Source: Mugilogobius chulae (Eukaryota). Taken from it: a DNA stretch of 64,000 bases. This document shows positions 13,651-64,000 of the stretch, in pieces. The translations under genes and the position numbers were made by a program. The stretch is from the NCBI GenBank assembly GCA_046056395.1, contig CM100125.1:45077576-45141575 (forward strand). Direction: 5' to 3'. The first letter of the stretch is position 1. The number at the start of each line of letters is the position of its first letter. The notes beneath the pieces are model-generated. The model worked only from the letters and a program-made list of their open reading frames with translations, made no database searches and had not been told where the DNA came from.

Positions 13651-13747
13651 TCAAGCTTACCAAAGATATTTGTGGAATGTCCTTTCTTTGCGATAGGTTT
13701 GAGTTCGTTGTGACCCCAGCCGTACTGTCTGTAGCTGTCCCAGGCAT
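13651..13747 (-). CDS. man1a2: man1a2 exon 3 (start of the GH47 catalytic domain)
   Basis: Strong acceptor ttgtttttgttttgcag|ATGATGAAA and donor ATCTTTG|GTAAGC. It encodes [33 protein letters not shown], the conserved glycosyl hydrolase family 47 entry motif (human MAN1A2 [33 protein letters not shown]). Confidence 0.85.
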
Positions 13748-16700
13748 GTTTCATCATCTGCAAAACAAAAACAATTCATAGGCTCATTGAAATGTCAATG
13801 CTGGATCTATTCGTTACATAGGAGTGATAGTTTTCCCCTTAGGGATTTTACTAATACACATGTCTTGTAAATCACAGAGTAGAGACCCCCCATCCCCACT
13901 TGACCTTTAGAAGAAAGATGTGAGAAAGACCTGGCCACGAGGCATGAGAGAGCAGATGATTTCTGACACAGAGACTGAGTAAGCAAAGCAGCTCCAGGGC
14001 AAACTCTACAGATGACACCACACTACTGACACTTCCATTTCAAATAGCATTCTCTTTTTTTTTTTTTTAGATTACACACTGGTACCTATTATTGTGAATG
14101 GAGCTGGACAATACTTACAAAAATGTGAATGTCAATATTTTTGGGAGTGTCTTACAATATTAAGGTCAGCTCAAAAAAATGTGTTAAAAGTTATTAGCTT
14201 AGTTTATGTCAGATGTAAAAATCTCACAAAATTGCAGAAATAGACCCTTATTTTAAAATGTAAACATAATATACAGTATATCTTTAGCAGCTCTTCTGGT
14301 GACGCTTTTACTGTAAATAATATACACAACACATTTATGATATCGTTTAGTAACATTCACAATATTATCTATTTATATACTGTCCATCTTCCTGTAAATT
14401 GAAAAAAAGAGAGAGGTGTAATAGTGATTCACCAAAATTTATAATTATTTTCTTGCAACAATTTGATTTTATATTAGTTTGTAAATTTAGAAAAATTAAA
14501 TCAGAAAAATATTAAATGTGGCTGTACAAAACACTACACGAGTGAAATTATTAGCAGTACAATAACAAGCAGAAGCATGAGATCAGAGGAGCAGCCGCTT
14601 GGTGACAGTATTTCTTAGCTTTTCCTCAGAGGTTTCTCAGCTCCTGCAGGGATCCTTGAAGTCTGGAGAGAGCCACGTTAATAAAAACAAGGTGTGTTCT
14701 TGGCCTTGCTTGTTCCATGACGTTGCACAGACACTGGGGGATTATAAATCAGATTATATACAGACATGGACACTTAAAAGCTGGCACGCTCTCTCTGATC
14801 GCTGTTGATTGGATGCTTCATCAAGCCTTGATTGGTCCATATGGCAAGGACAAGCGCGGGGAACGCAAGCTTGTTGACAATGTTGACACATGACTTGTTC
14901 CAGAAGGACCTTGGGAAAGTAATTGGTTATTAAGCGGCCAAATTCTAGATTGATTTTGACAGCAGCTCTAGTCCTCGCCACCAGGACACCTTGAAAACAG
15001 GACTGGGAAATTACATTATACAAGCCAAAATACCAGATAATGTCCTAGTTTATCCATTCATTACTCCAAGATCAAAGTCTTCTAAAGACAGATCAATGCA
15101 CAGGCATGAGACACAAACCGTACTGTATACTCTGTAAAAGGAGACCTATGTAAATAAACCTTTATGAAATCATTACCATGTTATGTGTTTCTACATTATT
15201 TATTTTATTCATGCATTATAGTCTTAAGTTTTAAGAACCCTTCAGAAATTTCTCAATTGAAAAGCCACCCAAGTTCACAACTTAATACCTTCTATTTAAA
15301 GTTGCAGTAACTAACTTCTTTAGTTATAAATTTGTGACCTTTGTGGTTTCCACTAAAAAGTCTATGTTACATGCAGCACTTTGTGAAAAAATGAACCACT
15401 GAGTATTGTCTGAACTAAATCATTAGTTTTCAACAATGTAGCTCTGATTGGTGAGCTTGGTGCCTTTGCTGTTTGTCAAAAGTGTCTTTTAAGATATAAT
15501 TGGAACCAAAATGAATCCATGTCAATATTAATCATGTGTTGAAGGACTTAGAAGAGAAAGTTGTCAGATTTACGTTTGTTTAGGTGTAAAAAAACAGCTA
15601 CCACCTTTAACAGCTCTTATATTCACAAATAAGATCTCAAAATGCTACTTTGTGACAGACAATAAACTATGATTTTCCTTTGTGCTGGGCGTGAGGAGAC
15701 CTTTAGGACTGTGGCTGTGTACACGTATACTATTATCGTTTTGAGAAGTGATCTGCTTATTTCTATGTGGGCCAGTCACCAAAGTGCCACAGTGAATATA
15801 TTAATCACAGCACATTATGCTCCGGAGCACAGTTTGGAACGGCCCAGCGCTCCAGGACTGGCCCTGTGTTATTAAGGTCAGAGTCGGAGGAGATTAAAAC
15901 CACTCCCCCTCCACCCCCTCCTCCACCCTCCTCTGATGAGTCTGAGAGGAAAAGTGAAGCGTCAACTCCACTGGTGGCTTTGATAAAGATGGGATTTGAA
16001 TATTTACTTTGAGGGTCATTTTAAGGTTGATTTGTCTGAGCAGTAAGAATAAAAGTTATTTTATGACAAATGGCTTGACTCAAGTTTTTTTTTACTAAAG
16101 TAAGGCTGATATTCGTACTCTGGTTTAGCATAAATATCTTTTAATGTGCTCTGATTCATTTTACACTAGATGAAAAGGGGAAACTGTATTGTTGTTACCA
16201 GGTTCAAGTATTCATTGGGTTTTTATACAGTATATTACCTGAACAAATAAAACCCACTTTTCATTAACAAAATAAAATCTATTCTAAATGTGCCTGAATC
16301 TTTAGTTTTTTATTTTGATGTTGGTCAGACTAGACACTTCATGCTGCTGCAGCCAGGTAGGGTTTTGATGTTAATGGCCAGAAGACTGTAAAAGGTGCTT
16401 TGACCTTCACAGTGGAAGCCAAACGCCGGCCCACTAGTCGCCTGGGTCTGGTCTGGGCTAAAAAGCAGCATAATCAGCCTCCAGCAATCTCTTTCCCAAA
16501 GGACAGGCAAGCGTGACTCATGTAACCATAGCCCTAATATACTAAAGTCCCACACACGCTCAAACGGACCGACCCTGGAGCTGTAAAATATTCATAAATC
16601 CCTTACAGCCGCTGCTACAGAGAACAGCCATTACTTGTGTATTGTTCAGTTTTAATCTGCACAGCCTGGGAGTGCAGTGACAGATTTCAGAGGTTTGGGA

Positions 16701-22260: not shown

Positions 22261-24018
22261 TGCAGAAGGAAATTAGCTGTAAAACTAGACACAAAGCACA
22301 ACATTGTGCTTAATGTAATTGTACGTTGTCCTTAATAAATATTACCTATATTTCAACATTTAGAACATTGTGAAGATTATGTTATTATGTTATTTGAATA
22401 TTGTACATAATCTAACCAGAACTTTTTTAAACATATGTTTTAATGGGTATATACAGAATCTATGTATCAGGAGGACATGCATTATATTAAGCTCAGAATA
22501 TCAGGATTTATGTTATTGTGATAAACTTGCCTGAACACCAATGCTTTAATAGTTAGAAGCAGTAAAAAACTGATTACCACCAAGTCGGCTTAGTTGATTT
22601 TAGTGCTTATTACTTTAGTGATACAGTGAATATTGGCAGATCCAAGGCTGAAGGTGTGGGTGGAGTGTGGCAGAGCACTATTGTAACTCTGGATAGTGAG
22701 AAGGGGAGCGCACTGCCATAGCCCAGACAGCTGCTTCTTGTTCATTTGGAAGAGTGTAGCCTTGTCTATGAATGGTGATTATGAGGCAAACAAAAGGGGC
22801 ATTTAGAGACAAAAGCAGGTTTGGAGTGAATGGGTCTGCTCCGTTTACAGCTAGACTCTGCCTCGATCCAAAAGCACTTTGAGAGAGCCAATATGAAGTA
22901 ATTATTCAGGAAAACTAGAACGCAGGAAGAGAGGAGCACAGAGGGGCAGATAGGATTGGTTTGGCTGCGTGTGTATAGAGAGCACCAGCCGATAGCACCA
23001 TCTGAATTCTGAACAGGCGCTGCACGTCTGGCTTACTGTTGCCTTCAATAAGAGCTGGCGCAGAGAGAAAAGCTAAGACAAGACAGAAATTCAGCTGTAC
23101 AGAGGCAAGAAACAGTGGACGGAGCATTTACACACACGGCGATGTTCAACCCATCGCTACAGGCCAAAGTAACAATGGAAACCAATCACATCGCACAATG
23201 GCAAAAACATACCATGAACACGGCTTCACAAGCTGGATATCTGTAAAGGTATCTGGCACAGTAAGCAGCTTTACTTTCTACAATCTAAAAAGGTAAAGAC
23301 ATGAGATGTGATTCTTTTTAAATGATCTTTCAAGAAGTCATAAAGTGTCACTAAATCAACTTTTGGCTACTAAACTGTGTATTGTTTTAGTAGCAAACTT
23401 GAAAGGTCAAAATAAGACAACTGTGAGCTAAATAATGGTTTTATTTTGTTTTGTTTTTGTGTGTTATTTTTACCACCAGTAGCTGTATGCTAGTTGTTGT
23501 TAGCATTATCAAGACAGCAAAATTCCATTTTGATTTCAGAAAATTGTGAACTGTGCTTTTAAACTTGTTGTGGTGGAAAAATTAAGAGGAGTGAATTGAA
23601 AATAATCTTTCTAATTGATAAACAACTTTTTTGCAAAAATTAAGTACAGTGCTTCAAACTATTTTGTATACCAACATAAAATCTAGTTTACATTTTATAC
23701 TTTAAAGGCTGAAAAATTAATCAAAAGATCGGGAGAACGAAATTAGTCATGTCAAATAGTCATTAATTTATTGATTGTGTTTTTTGAACTGATAGCTTCA
23801 TAAACAATCCTCTGTCAGCTTGGCTTGGACCCCACCTTTAATGAGCACAAAAATGACCAAAAACAAAACAAATCTTGAATATAAACTGTTTTAATTGATT
23901 GCAAAAGAGCATCTAATTATTATGTGTGACCCTACCCCAAATCATCTTCATCATCTTACCTCTCGAATCTTGTCTCGTTTCTCCTTGACGTCTGGTTCTG
24001 GTGGTTCCCCATCACTTA

Positions 24019-24221
24019 CTCCCACCACTTGGGGCATCGGGACGGGAGGTAAAGGTTTTGGCCCCGGGTCTTTCTTCTTCAAGTCTTCCACCACCTTGCT
24101 CTTCTCCGTCTGGATCTCGGCCTGGAGCTCCTCGCGGGACTTTCGCAGCTTTTCCTTGGCCTCCTGCAGCGCTCGCTCGTGGTCTGCTCGGATCTTGTCC
24201 CGCAGGCTCTCCTCGTCCTCT
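24019..24221 (-). CDS. man1a2: man1a2 exon 2 (stem-region coiled coil)
   Basis: The acceptor is tgtttgccccctgcag|AGAGGACGAGG and the donor is GTGGTGGGA|GTAAGT. It encodes (R)EDEESLRDKIRADHERALQEAKEKLRKSREELQAEIQTEKSKVVEDLKKKDPGPKPLPPVPMPQVVG, matching the MAN1A2 stem (human ...REEEERLRNKIRADHEKALEEAKEKLRKSREEIRAEIQTEKNKVV...PLPPVPIPNLVG). The phase is compatible with exon 1 (AG + A = Arg). The region is GC-rich, so several spurious overlapping track ORFs appear. Coordinates are +/-1. Confidence 0.8.
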
Positions 24222-28287: not shown

Positions 28288-28722
28288 AGCTGTTGTCAGG
28301 GAAACACACAGAGATGCCAGACAGTATTTATGAGTCTTGTTCTAAAGCTAAAGAAAGCACTACTGCAGTTTCAGTATGTTTCTTTTACTCTCAAACAGAC
28401 CATACCATCTTTCATCTCCAAAAAACGCCCAGGATTAGGGAGTTAGGCGTCTACAAATTTGGTACAAAATGCCGAATTAGTTAAGGGGGATTGGGGTGTT
28501 TTAGGTGGGATTGTCAGGGAAACACACAGAGATGCCAGACAGTATTTATGAGTCGTGTTCTAAAGCTAAAGAAAGCACTACTGCTGTTTCAGTATGTTCT
28601 TTTTTACTCTCAAACAGACCATACCATCTTTCATCTCCAAAAAACGCCCAGATTAGGGAGTTGGGCGTCTACAAATTTTGGTACAAAATGTCGAATTAGT
28701 TAAGGGGGATTGGGGTGTTTAG
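28288..28722. repeat. tandem duplication of an approximately 213-bp unit (2 copies, about 95% identical), each ending in one minisatellite unit
   Basis: ttgtcagggaaacacacagagatgccagacagtatttatgagtc...caaacagaccataccatctttcatctccaaaaaacgcccag(g)attagggagtt(a/g)ggcgtctacaaattt(t)ggtacaaaatg(c/t)cgaattagttaagggggattggggtgtttt is seen twice, giving the duplicate track ORFs 28263-28484 and 28491-28703. Confidence 0.85.
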
Positions 28723-28955
28723 GTGGGGATTGGGGTGTTTTAGGTAGGGATTGGGGTGTTTTAGAAGGGATTGGGGTGTTTTAGGTTGGGATTGGGGGTG
28801 TTTTAGAAGGGGATTGGGGTGTTTTAGGTTGGGATTGGGGTGTTTTAGGTTGGGATTGGGGTGCTTTAGAAGAGGATTGGGGTGCTTTAGAAGGGGATTG
28901 GGGTGTTTTAGTTAGGGATTGGGGTGTTTTAGGTGTGGATTGGGTTGAGTTGGGA
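28700..28955 (+). repeat. G-rich 20-21-bp minisatellite (GGGATTGGGGTGTTTTAGNT)n, about 12 units, G-quadruplex-prone
   Basis: Direct reading: ggggattggggtgtttaggtggggattggggtgttttaggtagggattggggtgttttagaaggg.... It has runs of G3-G5 with 3-8 nt spacers. It sits immediately 3' of the nested ORF's stop on the minus strand, and a single upstream copy is at 28484-28503. Confidence 0.9.
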
Positions 28956-29777
28956 CATGAGGATATCTTCGTCGGAGTCATCTTCCGTCGACTCGCATCC
29001 ATCGTTCAACTGAGGCTGAATCAGGAGACGTTGTAGCCTCAAAGTCTGTTTGCTCCTCCTATTACGGTTCTTACCTTTTGGAGTTATGGGCTCCTCTTCC
29101 TGTTCCTCTATTGGAGCGACAGTCTGGAATGATGACTGTTCCCGGTAACGATATTGGTGAACTAAAGGAACTTGACTGTCTCTGCTGTATCCTCTTGAAA
29201 AATTGTTTCGTCTGAATTCATTGTTGTAATTGTAACGATAGCTGTTCCTCCTGTTCCTACTTATGGGCTCCTCTTCCTGTTCCTCTATTGGTGCTACAGT
29301 CTGGAATGATGACGGTTCCTGGTAACGATATTGGTGAAGTGCAGGAACTTGACTGTCTCTGCGGTATTCGCTTGAAAAGTTGTTTTGTCTGAATTCATTG
29401 TTGTAATGGTTGCGATTATTTCTATAATATTTGGGTCGAACTGAAGGTTCTCTTGGGAGTTCAGTGTTGTTGTTCTCGACTTTGTTTGGCTTTTCTTCTT
29501 GTCCAGTGCAAATTTTAATCTCCTGTTGTTCTATAGGAATCTCTATAGGTAAGCACTCGTCATGTTTTTCGGCGATGTTCTCAGAGTTTGTTGGCATTGA
29601 AAGTGCACTTACCTCGATTAGATTATGATGGAGTACCCTAGGCTCTCTTGAGGTACTCTGGGCCATCCTCTCGTCTTCTGTTGGGGTCTGACTGCCTGAA
29701 ATTCTAGTGTTCCAGTGTCTACCCTTTTTGGGCTGGCAGGAAACATTTCTTTTTGACTCTCGAGTCAGTTGGGGAAG
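28929..29777 (-). CDS. second open segment of the same nested locus (first ATG at 29666; 245-aa track ORF) with 60-aa tandem repeats and an acidic C-terminus
   Basis: It is in the same frame as the 315-aa ORF but separated by stops. The intervening 29773-29980 is open only in the +1 frame (IYRNYSTITESSDIPPRISQLPEPEEEPQASTTAERNDDKVSQKSTQETSEPSEPMQSDALTLNDSNFPN), which implies two compensating frameshifts or splicing. It contains 2 x 180-bp repeats (RDSQVPxxHQYRYxEQSSFQTVAPIEEQEEEPI) and ends ...ESTEDDSDEDILMSQLNPIHT*. Confidence 0.3.
   Translation of the reverse strand, partial: LPQLTRESKRNVSCQPKKGRHWNTRISGSQTPTEDERMAQSTSREPRVLHHNLIEVSALSMPTNSENIAEKHDECLPIEIPIEQQEIKICTGQEEKPNKVENNNTELPREPSVRPKYYRNNRNHYNNEFRQNNFSSEYRRDSQVPALHQYRYQEPSSFQTVAPIEEQEEEPISRNRRNSYRYNYNNEFRRNNFSRGYSRDSQVPLVHQYRYREQSSFQTVAPIEEQEEEPITPKGKNRNRRSKQTLRLQRLLIQPQLNDGCESTEDDSDEDILMSQLNPIHT
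29065..29425. repeat. tandem 180-bp (60-codon) repeat, 2 copies
   Basis: ttatgggctcctcttcctgttcctctattgg(a/t)gc(g/t)acagtctggaatgatgac(t/g)gttcc(c/t)ggtaacgatattggtgaa... occurs twice in tandem at about 90% identity. Confidence 0.8.
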
Positions 29778-29984
29778 TTAGAATCGTTCAGTGTTAGTGC
29801 ATCACTCTGCATTGGTTCAGATGGTTCAGAAGTCTCTTGTGTGGATTTTTGAGAGACCTTATCATCATTTCTTTCTGCTGTTGTGCTAGCTTGGGGCTCC
29901 TCCTCTGGTTCAGGTAATTGGCTTATTCTCGGTGGAATGTCTGAGCTTTCGGTGATAGTGGAATAGTTTCTATATATTCACAAG

Positions 29985-30932
29985 TCAATGCTTTTGAAAG
30001 GAACTCTTCATCATTTGTTTCTGGCGTTGCTTGGTTTTGATTTTCCTCCTGCTCAGGCTCCGGTGTTTGCGTTGCCTAGTTGTATAAGCTTCAACTGTTT
30101 CCTGATTTTCTGGCTTTTGATTTTCCTCATCCTGCTCCGGTGTTTGCATTGCTATAGTTTTATCACCTTCATCCTTCTCTGTCTTCTGTGGCGAAATTTT
30201 AAAGAGGGACTTCTCTACTTCTCCAAAGCTAAATGTAAAATCTGGTTTATCACCTGGGAAGCTAAAATCCCAGTGGCCTGTTTTTTTGGCTTTTGTTTTT
30301 TTTGAAACGACAGGTTGATTTACTTGTATTGGTTCACTCAGGTCTATCTGGGCAAGTCCAGGTTCAAGGAGATGGTCCTCTGGATGTACCTGAACTTGTA
30401 TCGGATGACAAAGGTCCATTTGTACAAGTTCAGATACTGGAGGCTGGACTGCTAGAAGCTCCTGAACTTGTGTTGGTTCGCACAGGTCAACTAGTGCAAG
30501 TTCAGGTGCTGAGGGATTGTCTTCCACAAGTACCTGAACTTGTTTTGGTTCACCCAGGTCTACTTGAACAAGTTCAGATACTGGGGGGTGGACTGCTGGA
30601 AGCTCCTGGACTTGTTTTGTTTCGCACAGATCAACTGGTGCAAGTTCAGGTGCTGGGGGATTGTCTTCCACAAGTATCTGAACTTGTTTTGGTTCACCCA
30701 GGTCTACTTGGACAAGTTCAGGTGCTGGGAAATATTTTGCCCGAAAAACCTGAAGAACAGTTTTTAGCCTTTCAAGAGCTGGCCACTCGTTGGTGTCGTC
30801 CAAACAGGTGGTACAGGCTCTTGTTGAAGGTGTAGACACTTCTTCAGGAGTCTCAGAGTGTTGTATTGTGGTGTTGTTAGATAACATCACTGTAGTTCCT
30901 GTAAACTTCTTTTTTCTCCTGCCCTTTGCCAT
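29985..30932 (-). CDS. hypothetical repeat-rich acidic protein (315-aa ORF) nested in man1a2 intron 1; could be a gene, pseudogene or TE-borne ORF
   Basis: ATG at 30932-30930 in context gaaATGg. The N-terminus MAKGRRKKK is basic. There are 3+ tandem 41-aa (123-bp) repeats of the form PELVQVDLGEPKQVQILVEDNPPAPELAPVDLCETKQVQELPAVHP, each built from two 20-aa half-repeats. The tail KTKAKKTGHWDFSFPGDKPDFTFSFGEVEK...QDEENQKPENQETVE is unique and acidic, followed by a stop. It is on the same strand as the host gene. No homolog recognised. Confidence 0.35.
   Translation of the reverse strand: MAKGRRKKKFTGTTVMLSNNTTIQHSETPEEVSTPSTRACTTCLDDTNEWPALERLKTVLQVFRAKYFPAPELVQVDLGEPKQVQILVEDNPPAPELAPVDLCETKQVQELPAVHPPVSELVQVDLGEPKQVQVLVEDNPSAPELALVDLCEPTQVQELLAVQPPVSELVQMDLCHPIQVQVHPEDHLLEPGLAQIDLSEPIQVNQPVVSKKTKAKKTGHWDFSFPGDKPDFTFSFGEVEKSLFKISPQKTEKDEGDKTIAMQTPEQDEENQKPENQETVEAYTTRQRKHRSLSRRKIKTKQRQKQMMKSSFQKH
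30340..30730. repeat. tandem 123-bp (41-codon) coding-phase repeat, about 3 copies, with a 60-bp sub-period
   Basis: The near-identical unit ...cacccaggtctacttgaacaagttcagatactggggggtggactgctggaagctcctggacttgttttgtttcgcacagatcaactggtgcaagttcaggtgctggggg... recurs directly. Both strands are open (track ORFs 29985-30932 minus and 30293-30835 plus). Confidence 0.8.
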
Positions 30933-45009: not shown

Positions 45010-45322
45010 CTATGTCTGGTCTCATCGTGTCCTCCTTGTCCATGTATGACAACTTGTCCCGAGGCATGTTTGCCCTCTTTTGGGGAGTCGATGTGTGGGA
45101 TAAGCACGTCCTCCAGGCCCAGATCAAAGCGCTTATGCTTAGAGTTGTCCGGGAGGAAGAAAAGGCCCCGAAACATAACGTAATGAAGGCACTGAGAATG
45201 AGCAGCAGGATGAATTTCTCCGAGAGCCTGAGTGTAGCCCTGTGGTGGGGAAACGAGGAGGTGCCCGTCGAGAGGGTGGGTATCCTGCGGCCAGATAGTG
45301 GCAGGAGGGCTGGAGTGGTCAT
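45010..45322 (-). CDS. man1a2: man1a2 exon 1, coding part (Golgi alpha-1,2-mannosidase IB, GH47), with an internal 1-nt frame disruption
   Basis: The ATG at 45322-45320 has a reasonable context. The translation MTTPALLPLSGRRIPTLSTGTSSFPHHRATLRLSEKFILLLILSAFITLCFGA matches the cytoplasmic tail and signal-anchor TM of vertebrate MAN1A2. After a 1-nt shift the neighbouring frame reads FFLPDNSKHKRFDLGLEDVLIPHIDSPKEGKHASGQVVIHGQGGHDETRH, matching the next MAN1A2 segment. The exon ends at a consensus donor CATAG|GTAAGC (plus-strand gcttac at 45004-45009). Confidence 0.8.
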
Positions 45323-46439
45323 GTTTTACACTCTAGACGTGAACTTGGCTCGGGGAGGGGTTAGGGGTCACAGGGAGTGGGTCTAACACTGCCACAGGTG
45401 TTTTAGTAGCAGCATTCACAGTCTGAGCCACGTTATTATCTCATGCCAGCAGTAATAAATCCAGAAACAGGGTATAAGCAGGGCTGTAGTCCCTCAGTGA
45501 TGGAGATCAACAGCACAACTGTCATGGTGAATCTGAAAACAGCACAAAAACTATATTAGCTATGAAGCGAAAAACAAATTCTCTAAAATTATTGAAAGAT
45601 AAAATGGTACTTTTGTAAGGTAAGATTTCCTGCTTAGTCATAATGAGTGCAGTAAATTTCTATGCAAATAGTATGAAAGAACTACAAAACCATGAAAGTA
45701 ACATTAAAAATCAAGTTCGTCACAAAAGGCTGCTTACATTCTACTTAAACAAGCACAGTTGATAGAGTACACTTGCAAATCTACGATGATTACTATTCAA
45801 TTGCATAATCGAGTCATTACTTCTATCGCAGGCTCAATATGATGCAGAAAAACAACCTGTTTGGTAGTTGCAGCCAAAGTGATGGATTTCCAGCTTTAGC
45901 ATATGGTCAGATCTACTGTATCGTGTTTAATTTTCACTACAGGGCAAAAAGCTTACTGGAAAATCCGCGCTGATTCGCCCTGTTACCTTAGGATAGGAAA
46001 TGAAATATGCTTCTGCTCTGCATCTGCTCAGACGAAGATGTCTTTTAAGAGCTCCCTTTAAAAAGAGGAGGTCGTGTAAATTACCTTTGGGTCAATTCCC
46101 CAGTGGCAATTCTACAGAAAGCCGTATTTCAGCCCGGGATTGTTTTTGCAGTAGTTTCCCACCGAGACTGCGCTGCTATGATGTGTCCACACTGAATACC
46201 AAGTTCATTCTCTGACAGTAGCAGTCTGTGAGATGATGATTAGCCCATACATAATGCTAGCTAACAACAACAAGAGGCTAACCAAACAAGCTTTTTTGTA
46301 AGCTACGGTAAACCCTGATCTGTCAACTCATAAGAACGCAAAAGGATAAGCAACCAAACCAGGCTAATAAGTCAGCTCAGAGACATTTTAGCATCCAGCA
46401 TCGGAGCTCCGGTGTTAGCTATTAGCATATGTGGCTAAT

Positions 46440-61018: not shown

Positions 61019-64000
61019 CTGCATTCAATATATTTGCATGATGAGAAATTATGCAATGGGGAGACTTTTATGCAGGTCTACAATCAATAGAACCAATTTG
61101 AACCCGGCACAACAATTACATTTCGTAGAATGATTCATTGGCTAAAATATCTTTTGCAAGCATTGATTAACTTAAAAAAAAGCATTATGTGACCAACACT
61201 AAGCAGCTAAAAGTGCACATTGTCTGGAAAGTTCAAAAGTCAGATCCGTTTGGAGCAAAGAAATCACTCACAATAAGAAAGACTTACTGTTATTACTAAG
61301 TTAGTTCCGAATAAGTGTAAGATGAATAAGTGCAACGTTATATAGAAGAATAAAAAACATTTCAGCTAAAGCAACATGATCTCCATGGAGACAGAAATAG
61401 TACTTACTTTTTAATGAGTTAGTTTACATTAGAAACTTGACTGCATAAGTAACTCATGGCTAAATTGTGTTATCACGATTATCATGAGTTATTTAACAGC
61501 TTTACTTTACTTTTCACGACATTTTTTCACACTATTGAACAATAAATGAACAACTACAAAAAGGTTCAATTATCAATGTATTTATAGGAAAATGTAATTT
61601 AAAAGTTCATCTTAAAGCTGGGGTAGCTGTTATTTACACTGCAAACGCGATTTACCTTCTATAAATCTGCAAAACACATTGTTAATATTGTGTATGTATT
61701 ATTTTGGTTGCAATATGGCTTATAAACGTCTTCTTATAAGCAACAAAGTGAAACTAGAAAGGACCACCCAAGCATAGCCAATCAGAGCACTGCATTTGGA
61801 TCTGATGAAAACTAAAATTCTTTATTATTCGATTCAGACAGTACTCAGAGATCTCATTTTTCACAAAGTCCTGCATTTATCATATACTTTTTAGTGTAAA
61901 AAGTTTACTAATTTACAAGTAAAAAAAATAGTTACCCCAACTTAAATTAGTTTGTATGAGATCTTTAGTAAAATCTCCCTACACAAGATGGCTGCTGTGG
62001 AATTGGACATTTGTTGATAGCATACAAAGGCTACGCACGGTCTAGTCTAATACCATAAAATCTCCTAAAGCTAATATCTATAATAGTAAGAGACATTTAT
62101 ATTTACTTTACCAAACGTGCTGTCACTTTGGCCCCGCTCTTAGCTTGCATTTTTCTACTCTACAACTGAAGTTATTTATCAGCTTCAAGTCTGTGCTTGA
62201 GTTAACATCATTTGTGTTCTCATCCATGATTAATGTTGTTTTGTATTTGGTCTTCAGAGTCTAATAGGTCTGTTATGGATCAGCCTGTACTCCCAGCAGT
62301 TGTGGGGTGGCATGTTTAGACACTGCAAGACTAATTACTTCCACTTGTTCAGATGATTGTTTTACTATTTGCTTTGTGACTATAAACTTTATAACGTGTT
62401 TACTCCAGAGATCAGTTTTCAGTCACTATTAAGCAGTGATTATGTGTGAATATATACAGTGCATTTTCTCAGTTTAGAAAGCAGCAGTTATCATTAGTGC
62501 ACAGCTGTTCATGTCATATAATGTCATCTGAGCAATGAGGTCTGCTTAAGTCTTTCTTAGCACACATAAGAAATGTATAGCATGCACCAGACTGTGTCAA
62601 GAGCAAAGCTTTGTAGTAATGAGATAAGAGAACAATTTGTATGTTCATGGAGAATGTAAACATCTGATCTCTCATATGATGGTTTATGCAGGTTTCAGCA
62701 ATAAAAGTAACACTTTTTAATCAAAAATGAATGCAAAATTTCAATATTTTTAACAACATAACCGATATAACAAGGCATGTACGCATCTATGCTAAAACTA
62801 TTGGGCTGGAACTTTATTTTGTGTGTGTGATTTTTTTTATTATTTAAACAACAGAAGCCATTGGTTATGTTACAAACAAATAAATAAATAAAAGAAAGTA
62901 ATGATAAATTAAAAGTAAATTGATAATATTCATGAAAAAGTAATAAATAAAAATAAAATAATATTTTGTACATAACATCATCAAATCCCAGGTATAAATC
63001 AATTTTTAAGATATGTATTTACATGTAGAAATGCTATACTGCTATAATATTTAGCCCCATATACTGTATATGGAATGCTTGGAGCACACTTGAAACATAG
63101 GAGATCATTTCAAGATATCAGCAGAAAGCAGCATATGATGTTTAAAAAATGTAACCTATTGCATCAAAGTAGAACAAAAAACGTATTTACGCTAAAACTA
63201 TTGGTCTGGAACTTAAGCACTGGGCAGCAGAAAGACAAGTATAAAAAAATATAATCATTTTATAGGAACTTCAATTCAGTAGTAACATGCTGAATGCTTT
63301 CACACATTGTTCTGCCACAAACAGATAAAGAATCAACATCACAGACATTTTCATATCTCATATTTTTCTGCTACTGCACTTATTAAACACTGATAAAGGG
63401 TATAGTGTAGGTCACAGATTCAGTTTGATTATGTTCTTGACCCTCTGTTGGAATTCCAGATTTTACAGTGTCCTGCTGAAACTCTCATGGCTGAAATGTG
63501 TATGTTGGATGGATGAGTAGTTTTCATACTGTGTGGACTAAAATCTATTCAAACGCTTTTTACAAAGACCTGCCTCCTATGAGGACAAAAACCCATGTCC
63601 CCAAGAATTCATGCTATGTTAGATTAACAACATGGTTTAAAGTTCAAGATTATCAAAATCCAGTTAAATCAAACAAAAGTATGTAATTGTGCAACATAAT
63701 TATAAAAACTAACTCCTAAGTTACTCAAAGTAGTATTTTTTCCATACTACTAGAGCACGTTTCCATCAAATCCTTTTTATCACTTACTTTCAACTTCATC
63801 ATTTAAGGCGTACTAATGCTCTACCTTCTCTCTAAGCAATGAATCTTCTGATTAATTTCAATTTTATTTATTTAAAGTTAAGAGTTAAGTTAAGTTAAGA
63901 CTGGGCTCAAAATCCAGAAAATCAATGTATTCTTAAGTCAATGAAATTCCTCAAGAAGCATAAAAACCCAGCTTGTGTGTATCTGCATGTGTGTGTTTAG

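Follow-up and report, generated by a model that had tools for sequence, protein, structure and literature searches.

The 64,000-nt stretch of Mugilogobius chulae DNA that we analysed (hereafter the window) is one base short of an open reading frame within the first coding exon of man1a2. Does this goby carry a broken gene, or does its assembly carry a faulty copy of a sound one? A sequence-only reading of the window had noticed the break and offered three explanations for it, namely a homopolymer assembly or sequencing error, a segregating frameshift allele, and a paralogous copy decaying after the teleost duplication. Here, we argue for the first of these: the missing T probably reflects the loss of one homopolymer base from the assembly consensus of M. 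chulae rather than a feature of the living gene.

From its ATG, exon 1 reads MTTPALLPLSGRRIPTLSTGTSSFPHHRATLRLSEKFILLLILSAFITLCFGAF and then runs into the unrelated SSSRTTLSIS..., and the frame offset by one base carries the rest of the expected sequence (...FFLPDNSKHKRFDLGLEDVLIPHIDSPKEGKHASGQVVIHGQGGHDETRH) and reads ...MFRGLFFLPDNSKHKRFDLGLEDVLIPHIDSPKEGKHASGQVVIHGQGGHDETRH up to the donor. The frameshift described by the sequence-only reading is thus present, and the coordinates of the features concerned are collected in the table below. The switch between the frames occurs inside GGGGCC-TTTT-CTTCCTCCCGG, and the motif GGGGCCTTTTCTTCCTCCCGG (45149-45169, minus strand) has a single occurrence in the window. 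Exon 1 codes for the cytoplasmic tail, the signal anchor and the first part of the stem, and measures 313 nt as assembled against the 314 nt expected; the missing base belongs to the Phe-Phe-Phe codons on the luminal side of the anchor, in the conserved motif GAFFFLPD. With T5 in place of T4, this site would read GCC TTT TTC TTC CTC, that is A-F-F-F-L. The three man1a2 exons of the window have GT/AG borders throughout, and the junction of exons 1 and 2 (AG/A, Arg) is in phase for the shifted frame only. Addition of one T gives an uninterrupted 224-aa N-terminus across exons 1-3, which bears out the earlier claim that the rescued frame joins exon 2 in phase; as assembled, the frame of the ATG is closed at codon 152 by a TGA in exon 2. 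This is the one lesion in the three exons. Chance does not account for such a pattern, in which a single base is absent from an otherwise highly conserved coding exon.

Features of the man1a2 locus in the window (positions counted from the first base of the window)
Feature	Position	Strand	Remarks
man1a2 coding exon 1	45010..45322	-	ATG 45322, donor AG/GTAAGC after 45010
T4 run (A4 on the plus strand), one base missing	45160..45163	-	T5 expected
Downstream ATG, shifted frame	45174..45176	-	Start of GenBank model WMY93_013904 (P0061)
man1a2 exon 2, intact	23960..24221	-	Continues the shifted frame of exon 1
man1a2 exon 3, intact	13661..13757	-	Start of the glycosyl hydrolase 47 domain, MMKHAWDSYRQYGWGHNEL...
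trim45, last four coding exons, all intact	58247..61055	-	61055-60891, 60539-60366, 59661-59515, 58405-58247

The identity of the gene leaves little room for discussion. Once repaired, exon 1 is 95-97% identical at the protein level to the MAN1A2 N-termini of percomorphs (E down to 5e-61), in agreement with the gene name first given to it. GAFFFLPD is found in 15 of 16 aligned orthologs, from mammals to teleosts (pig and hamster to bonytongues), the sixteenth being an N-truncated Periophthalmus model, P0042, which does not cover the motif; the A-F-F-F anticipated at the break is thus what orthologs carry. In the repaired protein, the hydrophobic anchor corresponds to residues 38-56, the best 19-aa hydropathy window (KD 2.67). 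Exon 3 is the first exon of the GH47 domain and the only one in the window, the remaining man1a2 exons lying outside it; the corresponding Pfam domain, PF01532, is present in the deposited M. chulae model P0061 and in its relatives. The full-length percomorph MAN1A2 proteins fall into one 471-member cluster, with no goby among the members listed.

The genomic neighbourhood is equally telling. Directly upstream of man1a2 and on the same strand, we mapped four coding exons of trim45 by tblastn with orthologs of RING, B-box, coiled-coil and filamin architecture; these exons match the Pfam Filamin domain (PF00630, E=9e-9), and the C-terminal tail GHGHxGHPGKPHWSCCG is conserved in the window. TRIM45 adjoins MAN1A2 in tetrapods, and man1a2 downstream of trim45 is what we take to be the canonical vertebrate arrangement. 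Its position next to trim45 therefore identifies the man1a2 studied here as the canonical locus. Over the other coding exons of the window (man1a2 exons 2-3 and the four trim45 exons, ~0.9 kb), no further indel was found. Locally, there is thus no sign of a high error rate, an observation that we regard as neutral evidence.

Several other features of this region deserve mention. Between the terminal exon of trim45 and the start of man1a2, the 5S rRNA model RF00001 matches over its full length (positions 1-120, 60.2 bits) at 56359-56475 on the minus strand; this sequence may represent a solitary 5S gene, a pseudogene or a SINE derived from 5S rRNA. Intron 1 of man1a2, which spans ~21 kb in the window, harbours at 28293-30932 (minus strand) two long ORFs on the strand of the gene, at 29985-30932 (315 aa) and 28929-29666 (245 aa), made of coding tandem repeats of 72/144 nt and 177 nt. 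Next to them lies a minisatellite with a 21-nt unit (28705-28944), and the GC skew is locally strong (+0.22). These ORFs have no Pfam match and are absent from a collection of 15 billion proteins; they could represent a nested lineage-specific gene or be repeat-derived. Percomorphs share a highly conserved 5′ leader of man1a2, which covers the ~100 nt that precede the ATG. A minimal uORF, ATG AGA TAA TAA, is found in it at ~45423-45434 (minus strand) in the window and in the relatives L001 and L002, with ATA in place of its ATG in L003/L004. In databases, many teleost annotations include a 105-aa MAN1A2 made of exon 1 only (e.g. Amphiprion ocellaris XP_023152939.2, RefSeq), ending at a TAA made by the donor AG/GTAA; these may be models split by the long intron 1 or reflect a real short, intron-retaining transcript. 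Finally, the 90%-identity MAN1A2 cluster (that of P0145) also contains two TENT5C/FAM46C proteins (P0267 and P0275). TENT5C is a chromosomal neighbour of MAN1A2, and its presence in the cluster is probably a clustering artefact from a chimeric read-through model; no tent5c was found in the 64,000-nt window.

Comparison with relatives at the DNA level shows that the lesion is private to the window. The closest relative is Periophthalmus magnuspinnatus, whose locus behind P0042 (GCA_026225835.1) is 92% identical at the nucleotide level over exon 1 and its 5′ flank. At the site of the break, this locus has GGGGCC-TTTTT-CTTCC, that is T5, in frame, as the sequence-only reading had expected of an intact gene. 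Five species keep 9 nt in the Phe-Phe-Phe codons: TTT TTC TTC in P. magnuspinnatus (L002) and in the Logan contigs L003/L004 and L006, TTC TTC TTC in the Logan contig L001, and TTC TTT TTC in the Logan contig L005, the last two with synonymous C/T variants. The window alone has 8 nt (TT- TTC TTC). We also considered that a C might be missing from (TTC)3 rather than a T from T5, as hinted by a distant relative; this was set aside, since the close relative has T5, although one species with TTC TTT TTC is also known.

The same exon is damaged in a different way in the P. magnuspinnatus assembly. Indeed, GCA_026225835.1 (CM047771.1, L002:3010-3020) carries a private 1-nt insertion in man1a2 exon 1, which turns CACAT-CGAC into CACTTCCGAC, ~60 nt downstream of the site of the T run. 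Because of this insertion, the deposited model NQD34_015736 (P0042) begins at a spurious ATG (MCSSHTS/DSPKEGKH...) and is devoid of a signal anchor. Three ORFs predicted for an intact exon 1 in the VGP assembly of Periophthalmus had no match in the protein collection. Such lesions thus do occur at exon 1 in goby assemblies. Two single-base lesions in two assemblies of one constrained exon are explained far more easily by base-calling noise than by two separate inactivations of the gene.

A search with exons 1-3 retrieved a GenBank model from M. chulae itself, WMY93_013904 (P0061), which begins MFRGLFFLPD... Its first 175 residues are 100% identical to the product of the window from the downstream ATG at 45176, as expected of DNA from this species, the yellowstripe goby, or from one that cannot be told apart from it. 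The in-frame ATG that had been pointed out just upstream of the break in the rescued frame, giving MFRGLFFLP, is thus the start chosen in the deposited annotation. As had been anticipated, the product of this ATG has neither the cytoplasmic tail nor the signal anchor, its best 19-aa hydropathy window reaching 0.0 versus 2.67 in the repaired protein. P0061 counts 262 aa and is truncated at both ends, as is typical of fragmented annotation; it runs into the intron after ...YYLSGQE. Judging from this sequence, P0061 cannot be a functional enzyme: without a hydrophobic anchor window, it is predicted to have no way into the secretory pathway. The depositors' model appears to have sidestepped the same frameshift by means of a start placed downstream of the break, and this start implies that the annotated assembly would have T4 too.

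How old could the lesion be? We compared the repaired window with Periophthalmus codon by codon. Exon 1 shows 7 synonymous and no nonsynonymous differences upstream of the break and 14 synonymous and 3 nonsynonymous downstream of it, and exon 2 shows 26 and 8. When amino-acid changes over 192 aa were polarised with ten percomorph outgroups, 2 were private to M. chulae versus 4 to Periophthalmus. These values point to strong purifying selection on both sides of the break, with no acceleration apparent on the M. chulae branch. Since constraint is intact on both sides, any real deletion must be extremely recent, with no trace of relaxed selection.

These observations bear directly on the competing explanations. 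That the window holds a paralogous man1a2 copy decaying since the teleost genome duplication, the third of the explanations first offered, is very improbable. The frameshift itself and the doubly truncated deposited model speak for it, but the hallmarks of a pseudogene (relaxed constraint, acceleration of the branch, several lesions) are lacking: dN/dS is low on either side of the break, no acceleration is seen on the M. chulae branch, the splice sites are intact and exons 2 and 3 are free of stops. The copy is moreover the one that follows trim45, in the canonical vertebrate arrangement, and it is orthologous at 92% nucleotide identity to the man1a2 locus of Periophthalmus. Among the best-scoring full-length matches, most percomorphs show a single MAN1A2 sequence or its isoforms, which is indicative only; in the same matches, salmonids and carps, with their extra genome duplications, show several. 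We give an even slimmer chance to the idea that the gene functions as written, by programmed -1 frameshifting, transcriptional slippage or use of the downstream ATG. Sequence logic does in theory allow a shift by -1 behind GCC UUU to restore A-F-F-F. Yet the zero frame (G GCC UUU / C UUU UCU) contains no slippery heptamer of the X XXY YYZ type, the folding of the next 97 nt is not more stable than that of shuffled controls (z = -0.73), and the arrangement is found in no relative compared, all of which are in frame; with neither heptamer, stimulatory fold nor conservation, a programmed -1 ribosomal frameshift was rejected. For slippage of the polymerase, a run of four nucleotides is much too short. 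An in-frame start is available at position 45176, but the context of this ATG is weak (T at -3, T at +4), it lies behind a strong upstream ATG and its product is the anchorless one described above.

The remaining alternative is a very recent 1-nt deletion, that is a loss-of-function allele of man1a2, segregating or fixed in an inbred laboratory line. We consider it unlikely, though it deserves more attention than the previous two. Its product would be a protein of 151 aa made of the tail, a near-complete anchor and 97 out-of-frame residues, terminated prematurely in exon 2; nonsense-mediated decay would probably remove the mRNA, and mannose trimming in the Golgi would be left to man1a1 and man1c1. 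Vertebrate class I Golgi mannosidases are partly redundant, which is favourable to such an allele, as are the absence of the base in the sequence as given and the lack of other indels in the neighbouring coding exons. The genome was sequenced from a fish of a 7th-generation inbred line (PMC7782490), and deleterious alleles can become fixed by drift in such lines. In addition, the start of P0061 implies the same T4 in the annotated assembly, and a second M. chulae assembly exists, so that T4 may have been seen twice. If P0061 and the window derive from independent data, their shared T4 argues for a real allele; yet both may stem from one data set. Several observations weigh on the other side. 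The M. chulae lineage shows no relaxation of constraint, which leaves room only for a very young allele, and a different private indel affects the same exon in another goby assembly. An artefact is also favoured by the homopolymer setting and by the documented low base-level quality of the published assembly. MAN1A2 is highly conserved and its loss is severe: knockout in mouse causes neonatal death by respiratory failure (PMC8343402), and knockdown in zebrafish causes biliary, ciliary and laterality (left-right) defects (PMC7662016). A priori, one would therefore hardly expect a healthy laboratory line to be homozygous for a null allele. Should T4 be real after all, for which we see a small but appreciable chance, this viable laboratory goby or its species would be homozygous for an N-terminal frameshift in man1a2 and would constitute a natural vertebrate knockout, presumably buffered by man1a1 and man1c1; rescue of a real T4 by non-canonical -1 recoding at GCC-UUU-UCU is far less likely.

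Altogether, a homopolymer error is the best supported of the explanations offered: the lesion is private to one assembly, lies in a homopolymer and is surrounded by fully constrained flanks, and the cause is most likely a consensus error rather than a true allele. Exons 2-3 and their splice sites, perfect and in phase with the frame that follows the shift, also count for an artefact. Homopolymers are the typical place of residual consensus indels in long reads. The real gene would thus have T5, read A-F-F-F-L and encode a normal type-II Golgi alpha-1,2-mannosidase IB complete with tail, anchor, stem and catalytic GH47 domain. The frameshift in the assembled sequence would have driven the depositors' model to the next in-frame ATG, giving a biologically implausible anchorless protein. 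One property of the site counts against the error reading, as T4/T5 is a short homopolymer. Exact matches to the frameshifted ORF (136 aa), the rescued ORF (56 aa), the repaired ORF (105 aa), the exon-2 ORF, the antisense ORF over the break with T4 or T5, and eight more ORFs of the window were found neither among the 15 billion proteins nor on any contig of collections in which M. chulae reads are evidently not represented, so that this absence favours neither reading.

What is known of the available assemblies helps to place this interpretation. The only published M. chulae genome, which may not be the source assembly of the window, was built with DBG2OLC from 29x PacBio RSII data and Illumina contigs and has a BUSCO score of 87% (PMC7782490). 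With the same caveat as to source, the published assembly has, in an independent comparison, the lowest genome BUSCO among the gobies considered (92.1%), and its homology-based annotation there comprises 53,446 genes (mean 315 aa, BUSCO 67%), better goby assemblies having roughly 22-25 thousand genes averaging 556-647 aa; the authors left M. chulae out of their analyses (PMC12415946). A fragmented annotation of this kind is the pattern that frequent frameshifting indels produce. For M. chulae there is also a second assembly with protein annotation, GCA_046056395, whose accession is given in PMC12869079; a literature search for its description returned this citation only. If GCA_046056395 is accurate, or if T4 is shared by two independent assemblies, the error reading would be considerably weaker.

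While we are most likely dealing with an ordinary quality problem and not with new biology, the lesion matters in practice. It has been carried into public databases as a truncated, anchorless MAN1A2 (WMY93_013904, 262 aa), and truncated models of this type can mislead comparative work on gene loss or N-terminal isoforms. If the frameshift were true, a viable fish without MAN1A2 would inform on the redundancy of Golgi class I mannosidases; M. chulae is under development as a laboratory model, so a real frameshift would also be worth knowing, although none of our observations calls for one.

Compared with known systems, the locus shares features with a vertebrate MAN1A2 (Golgi alpha-1,2-mannosidase IB, GH47) and with residual consensus errors. 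Like the former, it shows 79-83% identity in alignments with the N-termini of pig, hamster and turtle, the same layout of tail, signal anchor and stem, the same phases at the exon 1/2 and 2/3 junctions, and trim45 as upstream neighbour; it differs in its frame, which is intact in vertebrate MAN1A2 and broken here as assembled, for want of one base. Residual homopolymer indels in long-read assemblies reportedly break gene models. The M. chulae case resembles such errors in being a single-base deletion in a homopolymer of an otherwise conserved coding exon and in having pushed the annotator's model onto a false downstream start, and it departs from them in that the run is only 4-5 nt long and ~0.9 kb of neighbouring coding sequence is without indels. 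A further parallel is man1a2 exon 1 of P. magnuspinnatus in GCA_026225835.1: there too, the same exon bears a private 1-nt indel and the model sits on a spurious start, while the lesion is an insertion, lies outside the T run and leaves T5 intact.
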